Shown here: positions 75 through 4,432 of the stretch, in pieces
How the letters are laid out: every line of letters begins with the position of its first letter
Numbering within the stretch: the stretch's first letter is position 1
IMG/VR virus record: IMGVR_UViG_2778261639_000018
DNA: 4,432 nt
Source of the DNA: a virus
Taxonomy: Duplodnaviria; Heunggongvirae; Uroviricota; Caudoviricetes
Strand: one strand, 5' to 3'
The notes under the pieces: model-generated
The model's database searches: none
What the model saw: the letters and a program-made list of their open reading frames with translations, nothing else
Told to the model about the DNA's origin: nothing
Made by a program: the position numbers and the translations under genes

Positions 75-1274
75 TCATAATGAGTTATTCCAGGTATTCT
101 TTAAGTTCCCTAACATTGTCTGCGTAGAGTCCTGAATAGCTTTCCAGCCACCTCTGGAATTAATCTGTGAACCAAGTTCTTTAGCAAATTTAGGAAGTGC
201 ATCAGAGGCTTTAACATCACCATTTTTCATCTTATCGAAAAGCTGTTTTTCAGTCAGACCTAAAGCCTTTGCAAATGCCTGAGTAGCACCCGGTAAAGCT
301 TCAGATAGTTGCCCCTTCAACTCCTCAGCCATCACCTGACCCTTAGAAGCCATCTGTGACACTGCGGTTAATGCTCTTTGAATCTGCTCATCTGAACGAC
401 CCATTAGACGGGCGTAACCTGTAAGGTTTTTAAATAACTCTTCTGACCCTTCAAGACCCATCGTAGTCGTTGCACTTGCACCAAATGAAGCAAATTGCGC
501 TTGTGTTTCGGTTGTGTCCATACCAGTAATTTGAGTTAAATCCTGAATGAACTTTTTAACCTGTGTACTTTGGTCACCGAATACGAAATCAATACTTCTT
601 TCCGATGATGCACGCTGTAAACCAACTTCCATTACTCGCTGATAAGCGGATAGTACAGCCTGAAAGCTGATAAATGCACCTGCTGTTTTAACTGCCGCTG
701 AACTTAAATTATCAAGACTATTAGCTGCTTTGTCACTATTAATGCTGGTGGATGTATGACCTCTGGCTTTAGCAATTGCTTCTCGTACACTTGAATTTAG
801 TTTAGCAAGGGCTTCATTAAACTTGGTGTTATCCATCTGACCAGCTTTACTAGCTAGCCCATAAAACTGACTCTTAATGTATTTCTCGACAATTGGGTTA
901 AGACCTTTTAGCTTAGACATATTCGCTGAATAAGCTGCTGTGATTGCTCTGTTGCCGCTAATTCGTGGCTGTCTTGGCTGTCTAAGTGGCTTTAAAGTAT
1001 CCTCAATTTCCGTTTTAATCTTAAACGCTCTAGTGTTTTTAAGACGCTGCTCAATCTTGTCAAAGGTCTTATTAAACTTCCTTTCAAGTTGCCCTAAAGA
1101 ACTTGTCAGATTGCTGTCAAGTTGCTTGGTATCGACCTTAAACGCTCTATTCAAATTACGTTCAATTCTTTGTGCTGACTGCAAAGCTGCCTTTTCAACT
1201 CTTTGCAAGCCCTTAATAACGTTCTCGCTGAAGCCTAGCTCAACGATAAAACTATCAACTGTGAATTTGCTCAT
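75..1274 (-). CDS. 399-aa protein with N-terminal coiled-coil region and C-terminal tape-measure-like domain (tentative phage tail tape-measure-related protein)
   Basis: Complete ORF with ATG start at complement 1272-1274 and GAGGTGA Shine-Dalgarno about 10 nt upstream; TGA stop at 75-77. The N-terminal ~120 residues are highly charged and heptad-like. Residues ~300-380 (GQVMAEELKGQLSEALPGATQAFAKALGLTEKQLFDKMKNGDVKASDALPKFAKELG) resemble, from memory, the conserved tape-measure domain of phage tail length proteins. At 399 aa it is short for a full tape-measure protein. Gene confidence is high; product confidence is moderate to low. Confidence 0.75.
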   Translation of the reverse strand: MSKFTVDSFIVELGFSENVIKGLQRVEKAALQSAQRIERNLNRAFKVDTKQLDSNLTSSLGQLERKFNKTFDKIEQRLKNTRAFKIKTEIEDTLKPLRQPRQPRISGNRAITAAYSANMSKLKGLNPIVEKYIKSQFYGLASKAGQMDNTKFNEALAKLNSSVREAIAKARGHTSTSINSDKAANSLDNLSSAAVKTAGAFISFQAVLSAYQRVMEVGLQRASSERSIDFVFGDQSTQVKKFIQDLTQITGMDTTETQAQFASFGASATTTMGLEGSEELFKNLTGYARLMGRSDEQIQRALTAVSQMASKGQVMAEELKGQLSEALPGATQAFAKALGLTEKQLFDKMKNGDVKASDALPKFAKELGSQINSRGGWKAIQDSTQTMLGNLKNTWNNSL

Positions 1275-2507: not shown

Positions 2508-2560
2508 AAAAGCTGAAAAAAGCCCTAAACATAGGTTCATCCTCATCTGTGAAGGGCTTT
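2508..2560 (-). terminator. Terminator-like hairpin A (8-bp stem AAAGCCCT/AGGGCTTT, 26-nt loop) followed by a T-tract on the minus strand
   Basis: Stem 2519-2526 pairs with 2553-2560. On the minus strand the stem is followed by TTTCAGCTTTT. The loop is long for a canonical intrinsic terminator, so a protein-binding dyad is an alternative reading. Confidence 0.4.
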
Positions 2561-2627
2561 GAAGGTTTGCTTTAACGTTAACGAAGTTTCAGGAAAAACT
2601 TTCTTTAAAAGCTCTGTTTAAAAACTC

Positions 2628-2659
2628 TTAAAGAAAACGCCCTAATCATGAGTTAGGGC
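2628..2659 (-). terminator. Rho-independent terminator B for the leftward three-gene operon
   Basis: Perfect 7-bp stem GCCCTAA (2639-2645) / TTAGGGC (2653-2659) with a 7-nt loop. On the minus strand it is followed immediately by GTTTTCTTT. There is no T-tract on the plus-strand side, so the orientation is minus. Confidence 0.55.
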
Positions 2660-2957
2660 AAAGCTGTAAGGGTTCAATAATGAATGATTAAGCACTTTTT
2701 GAGATGACCTCTCAGACTAAACTGAAAGGCCATGACGAAAAGCATTGCACCTTTCCAACTCAGAATATCCATCCATCGGATTATTGAAAATATGATTTTA
2801 GGAAAAATTGCTCTTCCTATATATACAATTATGTCATGCTTAAGATTATTTGTCAACAGCTTTTTAACAGATTGGTAACATCAATTTTTATTTACCGCGT
2901 TGCCCACCCAGCAACCAACAAATAAACCTAAAGCTGTCCAAGCAATTATCAATCCCA

Positions 2958-3281
2958 TTAGTGAACCCTCATAGAATCCGTCACCAGAATATTATCGCTG
3001 TGCAGGATTGTCACAGCACCTTTCAAAAATTGCTCTGGGGAAATACTGTATTTGTTCGTTTGCTCGATAATCAATCTTTTCATGTTCGAATCTGAAATTG
3101 GTAGCATCATTCGAGGCTCGTTAAACTCCACCGACTGAATAAAGTCAGAGATGTTTTCTGCATTATCAGCCATTAACTCTAACAACTTATCAAAGTCAAT
3201 GCTAACACCTACATCAGTGAAAGCCTGAATCATCATGGCGGTGTCGGTATCAATAAAAATCTGTAGTGGGAAATTATTCAT
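2958..3281 (-). CDS. 107-aa acidic hypothetical protein
   Basis: The ORF track extends this frame to 3404 via a TTG codon. I prefer the ATG at complement 3279-3281 (MNNFPLQ...), which has a TAGGAT Shine-Dalgarno about 8 nt upstream. An alternative ATG at 3305 lacks a Shine-Dalgarno. About 16 D/E against 7 K/R by my count; no transmembrane segment or known motif. Confidence 0.65.
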   Translation of the reverse strand: MNNFPLQIFIDTDTAMMIQAFTDVGVSIDFDKLLELMADNAENISDFIQSVEFNEPRMMLPISDSNMKRLIIEQTNKYSISPEQFLKGAVTILHSDNILVTDSMRVH

Positions 3282-3338
3282 TTTTAAAATCCTATAAAAA
3301 CACATCTTAAATCTGCCAAAATAGCCATTCTGAGGCCA

Positions 3339-3355
3339 GTAACCATGCGGGTTAC
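3339..3355. repeat. Perfect 6-bp palindrome GTAACC-N5-GGTTAC
   Basis: Read directly: GTAACC at 3339-3344 and GGTTAC at 3350-3355. It sits in the 161-bp spacer between the 141-aa and 107-aa genes. Confidence 0.5.
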
Positions 3356-3360
3356 AGAGG

Positions 3361-3407
3361 GAGTTGCACTGGCTGGTAATGTAATTTATCAAATTAAGGT
3401 GCAACTC
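3361..3407. repeat. 9-bp perfect inverted repeat GAGTTGCAC / GTGCAACTC enclosing a nested AT-rich 6-bp palindrome
   Basis: GAGTTGCAC at 3361-3369 pairs with GTGCAACTC at 3399-3407. The inner pair is TAATTT (3382-3387) / AAATTA (3391-3396). No T-tract follows on either strand, so this is not a canonical terminator; an operator or RNA processing structure is more likely. Confidence 0.5.
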
Positions 3408-3442
3408 TGCCTGTAAAGTGCATTCTACCGTTACTTAGATGG

Positions 3443-3868
3443 TTATTTTGAATTGTCTTTATTAATCAATGATTTAACGTAGAAATACTGTCTCCGTGAA
3501 ATACCATATTTTTCTGTAATGTATCGCTGAGATTGACCAGCATTTATGGCCTGAGTGATATCATCACGGTTATAGCGGTTACCACGGGATTTATATTTGT
3601 CACCATCCACATCTTCTGAGGTATTGAAGTCTTCAATCAGCTTAATTGCATCGTGAAGGTCATCTTCTGAGGCATAATCGAAGGTATGGATAATCTCAAA
3701 ATCACCAGTATCTGCTGGTGCATTCTTCCATCTGGAGAAGCGGGATTTTAATTGCTGGTGTGTGAAGGGTTCAGCATTACGAGTTAAATCTTTCCATGTT
3801 CCGTTATTCTCACGGACAAGATGACCTCTATGGCGATAAAACGCATGATAATCAAATGTGCATAGCAT
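3443..3868 (-). CDS. 141-aa DNA-binding protein with C-terminal helix-turn-helix, tentatively Mor/C-family (Mu middle/late activator-like)
   Basis: ATG at complement 3866-3868 overlaps the stop of the upstream gene (TAATG), and a GGAGG Shine-Dalgarno lies in the last codons of that gene. The C-terminal segment RDDITQAINAGQSQRYITEKYGISRRQYFYV aligns without gaps to my recollection of the phage Mu Mor C-terminal HTH (RDLRIWNDFNGRNVSELTTRYGVTFNTVYKA) at R, D, G, T, K/R, YG, I/V, S/T and an aromatic pair. This is recall, not a search result. Confidence 0.7.
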   Translation of the reverse strand: MLCTFDYHAFYRHRGHLVRENNGTWKDLTRNAEPFTHQQLKSRFSRWKNAPADTGDFEIIHTFDYASEDDLHDAIKLIEDFNTSEDVDGDKYKSRGNRYNRDDITQAINAGQSQRYITEKYGISRRQYFYVKSLINKDNSK

Positions 3869-4158
3869 TAAACCTCCAATTTATCAGCAAGCTTGCAAAC
3901 CTTATCGCTCAAGACCTGAATCATTGAGCAGCCTGTACCTTTAGTTTGTGTTCTCAGTTCATCCAATTGCTCTACTGTGATACGGATAGCCTTAGAACCC
4001 TCTGCAACGTCCTTGATAGCGTCAAACGGTGTAAGGGCTGTGTGTTCCTTCAGAATCTCACCAACAAGTGCTGTGTGGCTCATGGCTGGGTATTTGTCTT
4101 TGATTGCTGCCAGTCTGGAATATGCCTCTGGCAAAAGGCGCGTAACTGTGTGTCTCAT
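3868..4158 (-). CDS. 96-aa ribbon-helix-helix-type DNA-binding protein, apparently two tandem RHH-like repeats
   Basis: ATG at complement 4156-4158 with AAGGA Shine-Dalgarno about 7 nt upstream; it is the first gene downstream of the divergent promoter. Residues ~2-40 (RHTVTRLLPEAYSRLAAIKDKYPAMSHTALVGEILKEH) and ~58-90 (IRITVEQLDELRTQTKGTGCSMIQVLSDKV) both fit the beta-strand / helix / G-x-S-T turn / helix pattern of Arc, CopG and TraY-type proteins. Confidence 0.7.
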   Translation of the reverse strand: MRHTVTRLLPEAYSRLAAIKDKYPAMSHTALVGEILKEHTALTPFDAIKDVAEGSKAIRITVEQLDELRTQTKGTGCSMIQVLSDKVCKLADKLEV

Positions 4159-4194
4159 TAAATTTTCCTTCTTAAAATCTTTGACTTATAACTA

Positions 4195-4223
4195 ACTTTA
4201 ACATATTTATAACATATTGTCAA
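4195..4223 (-). promoter_or_regulatory. Sigma70-like promoter for the leftward RHH operon
   Basis: On the minus strand: perfect -35 TTGACA (complement of 4218-4223), 17-nt spacer, -10 TAAAGT (complement of 4195-4200; 4 of 6). The predicted start is about 30 nt upstream of the ATG at 4158. Confidence 0.45.
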
Positions 4224-4241
4224 CATCTCATTTACATGATA
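4198..4241. promoter_or_regulatory. Four AACAT/TACAT iterons at exact 11-bp spacing (candidate operator)
   Basis: ACAT cores at 4201-4204, 4212-4215, 4223-4226 and 4234-4237. The first two units share TAACATATT. The array overlaps the -35 elements of both divergent promoters. TTATAAC also recurs at 4186-4192 and 4207-4213. Confidence 0.45.
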
Positions 4242-4245
4242 TTAT
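4217..4245 (+). promoter_or_regulatory. Rightward sigma70-like promoter with extended -10
   Basis: -35 TTGTCA at 4217-4222, 17-nt spacer, TG at 4237-4238 and -10 TATTAT at 4240-4245. A second weaker candidate upstream is TTGACT (4181-4186) with TATTTA (4204-4209) after 17 nt. Confidence 0.5.
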
Positions 4246-4295
4246 GGTTATAGGGGCTGATACAGGTCATTCCCTTTGATAAATAAGGGGAATTA

Positions 4296-4432
4296 ATGGG
4301 CTTTCTTGAAACAATTGCTGAATCTCACAGATTCGCAAGCTTAGGTTGCTTTGTGCTGATGAATCCCCTAATGATTTTGGTAAAAATCATTAAGTTAAGG
4401 TGGATACACATCTTGTCATATGATCAAATGGT
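4296..4432 (+). CDS. Possible 5' end of a rightward gene running off the right edge (partial, product unknown)
   Basis: ATG at 4296-4298 with AAGGGG Shine-Dalgarno 5 nt upstream, about 43 nt downstream of the rightward promoter. The frame stays open for 45 codons to the window edge (MGFLETIAESHRFASLGCFVLMNPLMILVK...). It is hydrophobic, has no recognisable motif, and could be non-coding leader. Confidence 0.3.
   Translation, partial: MGFLETIAESHRFASLGCFVLMNPLMILVKIIKLRWIHILSYDQM

Follow-up and report, generated by a model that had tools for sequence, protein, structure and literature searches.

Genes of the studied region

The DNA analysed here is the virus record IMGVR_UViG_2778261639_000018 (Caudoviricetes), a stretch of 4,432 nucleotides that we call the window, and this study concerns the group of small genes and promoters at 2958-4253 of it. 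An initial annotation, made from the letters alone, had read this region as an iteron-controlled three-gene cassette, that is, as a self-contained regulatory or anti-defence module with a promoter and operator, a ribbon-helix-helix (RHH) protein, a Mor-like protein, an acidic protein and strong terminators. In this study, we found that the observation was confirmed in part and that the interpretation was supported in part. All long open reading frames (ORFs) of the window are carried by the minus strand. Proteins are named below by their length in amino acids (aa), and the genes of the region and the stretches between them are as follows.

4159-4295, sense strand minus: promoter region ahead of the 96-aa ORF
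3868-4158, minus strand: ORF of the 96-aa protein, with a Shine-Dalgarno sequence
3443-3868, minus strand: ORF of the 141-aa protein, with a Shine-Dalgarno sequence
between the 141-aa and 107-aa ORFs, minus sense: non-coding stretch of 160 nt
2958-3281, minus strand: ORF of the 107-aa protein, with a Shine-Dalgarno sequence; the query-defined reference gene of the region
2881-2958, minus strand: hydrophobic micro-ORF of 25 codons, a length found in 74 of 75 loci

The three larger ORFs had been recognised correctly, each having a Shine-Dalgarno sequence and being under purifying selection across relatives, and the count of three fell short by the 25-aa micro-ORF, which had been missed. Purifying selection was seen on all four, with ratios of non-synonymous to synonymous substitution (dN/dS) from 0.05 to 0.22: 0.21 for the 96-aa gene, 0.05 and 0.18 for two alleles of the 141-aa gene, 0.22 for the 107-aa gene and 0.16 for the micro-ORF. 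The 96-aa and 141-aa genes are joined by a TAATG stop/start overlap, and so are the 107-aa gene and the micro-ORF. Scans with Pfam, PHROG, NCBIfam and PADLOC found no family for the 96-aa, 141-aa or 107-aa protein, nor did the PADLOC-DB defence models give a family for them at E<=1, in agreement with the earlier remark that no known defence hallmark was present. Rfam had no match within the region, and its sole credible one was the IS10 RNA-OUT at the window edge.

Phased repeats overlap two promoters

The regulatory features on both sides of these genes are listed here.

4195-4223, minus strand: promoter P96, with -35 TTGACA (4223-4218), a 17-nt spacer and a TG-extended -10 TAAAGT (4200-4195); promoter scan 10/12
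4194-4237, minus strand: operator array O1, four head-to-tail 11-bp units ATGTAAATGAG / ATGTTGACAAT / ATGTTATAAAT / ATGTTAAAGTT
4217-4245, plus strand: divergent promoter-like site TTGTCA-17-TATTAT, facing the 61-aa ORF; promoter scan 10/12
2854-2880, minus strand: operator array O2, TGTTACCAATC / TGTTAAAAAGC / TGTTG, in the same 11-bp phase as O1
2828-2856, minus strand: promoter P2, TTGACA-17-CATAAT with an upstream TG; promoter scan 11/12
2512-2660, minus strand: segment of the P2 leader with both terminator hairpins, upstream of the 234-aa, 71-aa and tape-measure genes
2660-2638, minus strand: terminator-like hairpin 1 with a T-run; terminator scan, fold -10.7 kcal/mol
2560-2519, minus strand: terminator-like hairpin 2 with a T-run; terminator scan, fold -14.1 kcal/mol

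The units of O1 begin with ATGTW and are followed by a degenerate fifth unit at 4193-4183. O1 spans both the -35 and the -10 of P96, which, judged by its hexamers, would act as a sigma-70-like promoter. The four-unit pattern matched once in the window and in 0 of 200 shuffles, and a period of 11 was found at O1 by the repeat finder TRF. Both P96 and the O1 array are kept in 26 loci, and the P96 hexamers are kept across the type I islands. The earlier call of a promoter with operator-type repeats was borne out by these data, and the region is regulatory. The -35 of the divergent site and that of P96 use the same 7 bp, and the two promoters are probably mutually exclusive.

The second array, O2, is located at -35 to -57 of P2 and extends into its -35. 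P2 was almost invariant in all islands in an alignment of 28 loci. Three TGTTR cores at 11-bp spacing occurred exactly twice in the window, at 4199-4225 in O1 and at 2854-2880, which is O2, compared to none in 200 shuffles. Over 99 related loci, the triple pattern was found 77 times at O2, 29 times at O1 and nowhere else, and always on the sense strand. In the type II islands, whose upstream genes are another set, ATGTTA, ATGTTA and TGCTTGACA precede the first gene at the same 11-bp phase.

Replication iterons are several direct repeats of about 17-22 bp that lie at an origin, by or in the initiator gene. The units here are 11 bp long with a 5-bp core; they are confined to the two promoters and were not found at the O-like initiator gene of relatives. 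Since the arrays overlap promoter hexamers, and do so at two promoters only, they are operator-type sites and not replication iterons, so that the repeats named in the initial annotation are real and the term iteron is not.

The strong terminators are likewise present as two hairpins but do not bound the region: they lie 220-440 bp past its end and downstream of P2, and a terminator scan found no intrinsic terminator at the 3' end of the region itself. Together they close a P2 leader of about 190-310 nt ahead of the 234-aa, 71-aa and tape-measure genes, and the second hairpin is kept in all aligned loci. A 32-codon hydrophobic ORF in this leader, resembling a type I toxin, was considered and rejected, as indels in relatives that are not multiples of three break its frame.

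The 96-aa protein as a candidate double RHH regulator

A model of the 96-aa protein made with AlphaFold2 (AF2) showed a strand at 3-7 and helices at 10-22 and 28-36, then a linker, and again a strand at 57-61 and helices at 62-72 and 79-93 (pLDDT 62.7, pTM 0.53). The beta-alpha-alpha unit thus occurs twice within one polypeptide, in line with the earlier assignment of an RHH protein. The model could be superposed on solved RHH proteins, and the relaxosome chains that it matched were three TraY molecules. Searches by sequence and by profile against PDB sequences gave chance-level matches only; the profile search with the 96-aa protein reached MazE7 alone, at E 0.97, and hhalign detected no similarity between the two halves of the protein. 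On the strength of the model, we propose that the 96-aa protein is a single-chain double RHH protein of the TraY-like kind. The beta-strands are the DNA-reading part of RHH proteins, and the strand motifs HTxTR and IRI were kept among 96-aa alleles that are only 31-38% identical. We further propose that the protein is an operator-binding regulator.

In TraY of the F plasmid, a single chain contains a complete RHH dimer, and TraY monomers line up as a train along directly repeated subsites (PMC12117103). This arrangement fits the 11-bp phased arrays found here. In contrast, the 96-aa protein is 14% identical to TraY, with no sequence similarity and no Pfam match, and TraY is an accessory factor of the relaxosome at oriT, whereas a relaxase/oriT context is absent here. 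The arrays in this region overlap promoters, and the proposed role is therefore transcriptional. Another comparison is with the Arc, Mnt and CopG type of repressor found in phages and plasmids; these small RHH proteins likewise control their own promoters from repeated operators that overlap them. Those repressors are homodimers of about 45-55 aa, whereas the 96-aa protein would be a natural tandem fusion, and the operator here differs in consisting of 3-5 direct repeats in an 11-bp phase that are duplicated at a second promoter.

The genes belong to one island family with a variable slot

Related loci were fished with the 107-aa protein (80 metagenome, 11 viral-collection and 3 genome loci), and linkage was counted in the 77 loci with at least 1250 bp upstream, a sample biased to the 107-aa gene. 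A member of the 96-aa family stood beside the 107-aa gene in 77 of 77. Fishing with the 96-aa and 141-aa proteins as well led to the same island every time, and whichever gene was used, the 96-aa, 141-aa and 107-aa genes were found only within one island family. The same gene order was seen in 99 loci, and again in loci that had been fished independently. Among 5426 complete E. coli genomes, 480 contain window-related DNA, always chromosomal, and 434 contain the 107/25 segment; the island is present in about 8% of E. coli genomes. A plasmid search gave no nucleotide match to the window. In 50,697 phage records there was no relative of the 96-aa, 141-aa or 107-aa protein. At nucleotide level, the window matched phage records only at its insertion-sequence (IS) ends and over the opening 100 nt of the tape-measure gene.

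The island is about 11 kb long and is inserted in yecE, between tonB and yciI, and elsewhere, according to annotated context. In the orientation of the window, its order is a large serine recombinase, a Dit-like 'baseplate' protein, the tape-measure gene, the 71-aa and 234-aa genes and the studied region. Two arrangements occur beyond this region: one has an O-like replication initiator together with a small HNH-like protein and the divergent 61-aa membrane protein, and the other has a 184-aa protein. The far end often carries a Dam methylase and a small serine recombinase. The studied region is hence one stretch of a collinear gene string, and the description of it as self-contained and insulated did not stand.

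The middle gene varies among the islands. The 141-aa gene was full-length in 44 of the 77 loci, in 39 of which the 96-aa, 141-aa and 107-aa genes are contiguous and in 5 of which an HNH-like gene lies between the 96-aa and 141-aa genes. A short version without the helix-turn-helix (HTH), accompanied by another small gene, was found in 7 loci, and unrelated small genes took its place in 26, so that it is swapped, truncated or missing in 33 of 77. The 141-aa gene occupies a variable island slot. The exact allele of the window was present in 60 of the 5426 E. coli genomes. Linkage had been put forward initially as the check on the cassette, which was to be given up if the genes occurred only singly. 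That case did not arise, as the 96-aa and 107-aa genes do stay together; this is due to a common island backbone with a variable middle slot and not to a cassette that travels as a unit.

These data bear on three other explanations. One is that the 96-aa, 141-aa and 107-aa genes form an autonomous mobile defence or anti-defence cassette, independent of their surroundings. All three proteins are orphans without a known family, and small genes of varying identity occupy the middle slot; such slots in phages and satellites often hold counter-defence or interference genes. However, the genes were never found outside the one island family, neither as proteins in the phage records nor as nucleotide matches on plasmids, and the gene content between the 96-aa and 107-aa genes is not constant. 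There is no PADLOC match and no enzymatic domain; of the three proteins, one adopts a DNA-binding fold, another contains an HTH predicted with confidence, and the last shows no more than an RHH-like pattern in its sequence. No positive evidence for a defence or anti-defence role was obtained, and we regard such a cassette as highly improbable.

A type II toxin-antitoxin pair, in which the 96-aa RHH protein would be an autoregulating antitoxin and the overlapping downstream 141-aa protein the toxin, would account for the leading position of the RHH gene, for its TAATG overlap with the gene that follows and for the operator repeats at its promoter. This is nonetheless the least probable of the explanations considered. 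The 96-aa protein consists of two RHH repeats with no free toxin-binding tail, and its supposed partner has an HTH and neither a toxin domain nor a family match. The two genes are also not a fixed pair, as the 141-aa gene is replaced or absent while the 96-aa gene stays, and the same operator array is carried by a second promoter.

The third possibility concerns control of excision, with the 141-aa HTH protein as the directionality factor of the large serine integrase and the RHH protein gating its expression. The island does have a large serine recombinase, and the directionality factors of serine integrases are small, diverse and often DNA-binding. We found no association of the presence or the allele of the 141-aa gene with the integrase type: the full-length gene occurs with integrase type A in 11 loci and type B in 13, and islands without it have type A in 6 and type B in 9. 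As the gene is also absent from one third of the islands, this role seems quite improbable.

Relationship to Felix O1 and the proposed switch

Genes for an integrase and a replication initiator are part of the island, genes for capsid, sheath and tube are missing, and its structural genes are the tape-measure and Dit-like genes only. The Dit-like protein has 75% identity with Felix O1 ORF68, which is encoded directly behind the tape-measure gene in Felix O1. For the tape-measure protein, identity to its counterparts in Felix O1-like myoviruses is 30-32%, and the 5' end of its gene has 82% nucleotide identity to the Felix O1-like phage garuso. The two island genes (window 75-1274, minus strand; related locus L002, 13000-15969) are syntenic with Felix O1 ORF67/ORF68 (L114, 3382-6407). 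The 71-aa and 234-aa proteins are not homologous to Felix O1 tail chaperones. From the identity and synteny of the tail genes, the likely partners of the island are Felix O1-like phages.

Relatives of the window have the gene content of a satellite, namely a large serine recombinase plus an O-like initiator and a partial virion set, in a total of about 11 kb, which falls within the 7-20 kb of such elements; these genes are not in the truncated window. In one metagenome contig of 11,233 bp (L059), the two termini overlap directly by 55 nt and the island genes stand in a circularly permuted order that joins the integrase end to the other end, which is consistent with an excised or replicating circular form of the island. 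We consider, with a probability of roughly 55%, that the studied region is the early regulatory segment of a mosaic, approximately 11-kb integrative island that resembles a satellite or parasite of virulent phages of the Felix O1 type.

In the proposed mechanism, copies of the 96-aa protein would bind side by side on the TGTTR cores, which are 11 bp, or one helical turn, apart. On O1, which covers the P96 hexamers and the shared divergent -35, the protein would autoregulate the operon and control the divergent promoter, by repression or activation. On O2 it would control P2 and hence the tail-gene block. As O2 lies at P2 ahead of the terminated leader, the 96-aa protein would couple the early operon to the late block, whose expression would further need read-through of the two terminators of the P2 leader. 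The 141-aa HTH protein would be an optional and exchangeable accessory DNA-binding protein, and the acidic 107-aa protein and the coupled 25-aa membrane peptide would form the constant part of the operon. The island as a whole would depend on a helper phage.

Several points weigh against this reading. Binding of the 96-aa protein to the O1 and O2 arrays is presumed from their layout, the confidence of its AF2 models is moderate (pLDDT 63-64), and no RHH or TraY family or profile was found for it in Pfam at E<=1. The TGTTR pattern was defined post hoc on O1, which leaves O2 as the independent match, and since the TTGACA of the -35 supplies one of the three cores in each array, the signal is in part promoter consensus. 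A terminal overlap was seen in only 1 of 29 contigs tested, that of L059. Integrase and replication genes are missing from the island copy in the window, and its tape-measure gene is incomplete. Satellite behaviour of the island, such as induction and packaging, is putative, and the link to a helper is a hint from gene homology.

A more far-reaching version can be put forward only tentatively. Here the region would be the master switch of an undescribed family of chromosomal Escherichia satellites, present in about 8% of complete E. coli genomes, with virulent phages of the Felix O1 type as helpers. Unlike known satellites, this family would bring its own tape-measure and baseplate proteins. 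A TraY-like double RHH protein on TGTTR arrays would hold the early operon and the terminated tail-gene leader until the helper infects, and the slot genes would be helper-specific sensors or interference factors. The island is apparently undescribed so far: a literature search, incomplete in its coverage, turned up no paper on the island or its accession numbers, and none on a satellite of any Felix O1-like phage.

Among known systems, the PLE islands of Vibrio cholerae are similar in size (about 10-20 kb), in having a large serine recombinase and a replication initiator of their own and in their relation to a virulent myovirus and not to a temperate phage. PLEs have been reported to be specific to V. 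cholerae (PMC10085698). No protein family was detected in common between PLE and the island, which, in contrast to PLE, carries tape-measure and baseplate genes of its presumed helper. Late control in phage lambda consists of the PR' promoter, the 6S leader RNA, the tR' terminator and the Q antiterminator. The island resembles PR'-6S-tR' in having a strong near-consensus promoter, a short leader that ends in intrinsic terminators, and structural genes next; unlike in lambda, no Q-like protein was found and no antiterminator was identified. The likeness is architectural only.

An RHH-autoregulated operon is ordinary in itself, but its setting in this island is not. The island is compact and under purifying selection, and alongside a serine integrase and a replication initiator it has two tail genes closely copied from Felix O1. 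Felix O1-like phages are commonly used in therapy and typing; should the island be a satellite of these virulent phages, or a parasite of their tail assembly, E. coli would have a counterpart of the Vibrio PLE-ICP1 pair. The two phased arrays and the leader-terminator layout offer handles on how the island senses infection.

The window is a fragment of the island

The remaining features of the window lie downstream of the studied region and at its divergent edge.

downstream of the 25-codon ORF and before the 234-aa ORF, minus sense: about 480 nt without conserved ORFs
downstream end of the sense strand, minus strand: the 234-aa and 71-aa ORFs, then the tape-measure gene
75-1274, minus strand: first 399 codons of the tape-measure protein (Pfam TMP_3, PHROG 4036)
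4296-4355, plus strand: first 20 codons only of the divergent 61-aa membrane-protein ORF, recognised by tblastn to the intact gene of relatives

Window bases 1-83 match the insertion sequence (IS) IS629, with 96% identity to IS629 copies of Stx phages, and the tape-measure gene is cut by it at codon 399 (position 83). At the other end, from about 4356 to 4432, lies an IS10 end that carries the RNA-OUT match (Rfam) and cuts the divergent 61-aa gene at codon 20. As both ends of the window are insertion sequences, the segment is a 4.3-kb fragment cut on both sides.

This raises the possibility that the module is, in this copy, an inert leftover of a decayed island, whatever its role in intact islands. 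Besides the two cut genes, the window has no integrase, replication or baseplate gene, and the reduction of the island to a remnant may have left the module without its targets. On the other hand, the four ORFs, both promoters and both arrays are intact, and E. coli MRE162 (NZ_CP119404.1, 2595883-2596870) carries the 107/25 and 141 segments at 100% identity. The rest of the window matches this laboratory strain less well, and the source genome is probably that of a near relative with additional IS insertions. We consider an idle remnant unlikely, with a greater share of the probability than the cassette, toxin-antitoxin or excision explanations. It would be compatible with an early regulatory segment of a satellite-like island, because the rest of the island is gone from this copy, removed by IS629 and IS10.

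The 141-aa protein and the genes of the slot

The AF2 model of the 141-aa protein has a C-terminal three-helix HTH with helices at 101-109, 114-121 and 125-140 (block-mean pLDDT 79-87 over residues 101-140), and a beta/alpha N-terminal domain that is predicted with low confidence. Pfam gave no Mor match at E<=1, the top match being HTH_28 at E 0.11, and a Foldseek search of the PDB with the model gave none below E=1, the top hits being the HTH domains of a resolvase, TrpR and ArdK. The protein is like Mor and C of phage Mu in its size (Mu proteins and this one being about 130-140 aa) and its C-terminal HTH. It is unlike them in the lack of a Pfam Mor match or of a solved structure below Foldseek E=1, in an N-terminal domain predicted as beta-sheet, and in being dispensable in a third of the islands. 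Of the label Mor-like, only the C-terminal HTH holds.

In the slot and beside the replication gene, proteins of 90-96 aa with a C-terminal HNH_3-like motif recur (Pfam E 5.8e-5 for one; related loci L045, 3851-4123, and L002, 19083-19373). These proteins may be degenerate relatives of homing endonucleases that mark recombination boundaries.

The 107-aa and 25-aa genes

The 107-aa protein is acidic, as had been noted initially, with a pI of 4.3 and 11 acidic residues compared to 1 basic residue in its N-terminal half. An exhaustive search of 1.84 billion representatives gave 18 matches, all of them its own orphan family or fragments of it except two spurious long repeat proteins. The family has only about four full-length representatives at 50% clustering, and 2942 clusters at 90% identity, compared to 10 and 33 for the two neighbouring proteins. 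We considered hypervariability, diversifying selection and hypermutation and rejected them, as the variation is scattered along the protein, with a synonymous divergence (dS) of 0.72 and the dN/dS of 0.22 given above. The many clusters are due to an old and deep recombining mosaic polymorphism under purifying selection. An RHH-like residue pattern was seen in the C-terminal half of the protein by sequence inspection only, and hhalign found no similarity of this half to either half of the 96-aa protein.

The micro-ORF at 2881-2958 encodes MGLIIAWTALGLFVGCWVGNAVNKN, a 25-aa peptide that by its sequence is a predicted single-helix membrane protein, coupled in translation to the 107-aa gene through the TAATG overlap. 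It is not annotated by RefSeq in the relatives inspected, and in some island variants a 74-aa gene replaces it.

A structured leader and a hairpin at the divergent gene

Within the non-coding stretch between the 141-aa and 107-aa genes lies a further feature.

3318-3430, minus strand: structured non-coding leader; fold of 3335-3430, -29.6 kcal/mol, z -3.47

A 9-bp stem (3407-3399 / 3369-3361) closes a 29-nt loop in this leader. Between two alleles of the upstream gene, the stem shows three fully compensatory pair changes, and the loop is unrelated in sequence and 29 nt long in both. A 45-nt block at 3362-3318 is almost invariant among loci with this version of the leader, which is not a canonical terminator. 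Where the slot holds other genes, the leader before the 107-aa gene is non-homologous and folds into a long hairpin of -49.4 kcal/mol (z -4.9; for example related locus L007, 9852-10000). As unrelated leaders are both strongly folded, a large RNA or DNA structure seems to be required at this position whatever its sequence. The conserved block includes TGGCCTCAGAATGGCT at 3323-3338 on the minus strand, in which GG and GC are spaced as in a sigma-54 -24/-12 element; there is no gene for an enhancer-binding protein nearby.

At the other edge of the region, a hairpin at 4269-4293 on the plus strand (fold of 4262-4300, -10.3 kcal/mol) spans the Shine-Dalgarno sequence that precedes the divergent 61-aa ORF. 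A second allele of this stretch has a hairpin of different sequence in the same place. The hairpin is kept in place despite the change in sequence, which suggests translational control of the 61-aa ORF.

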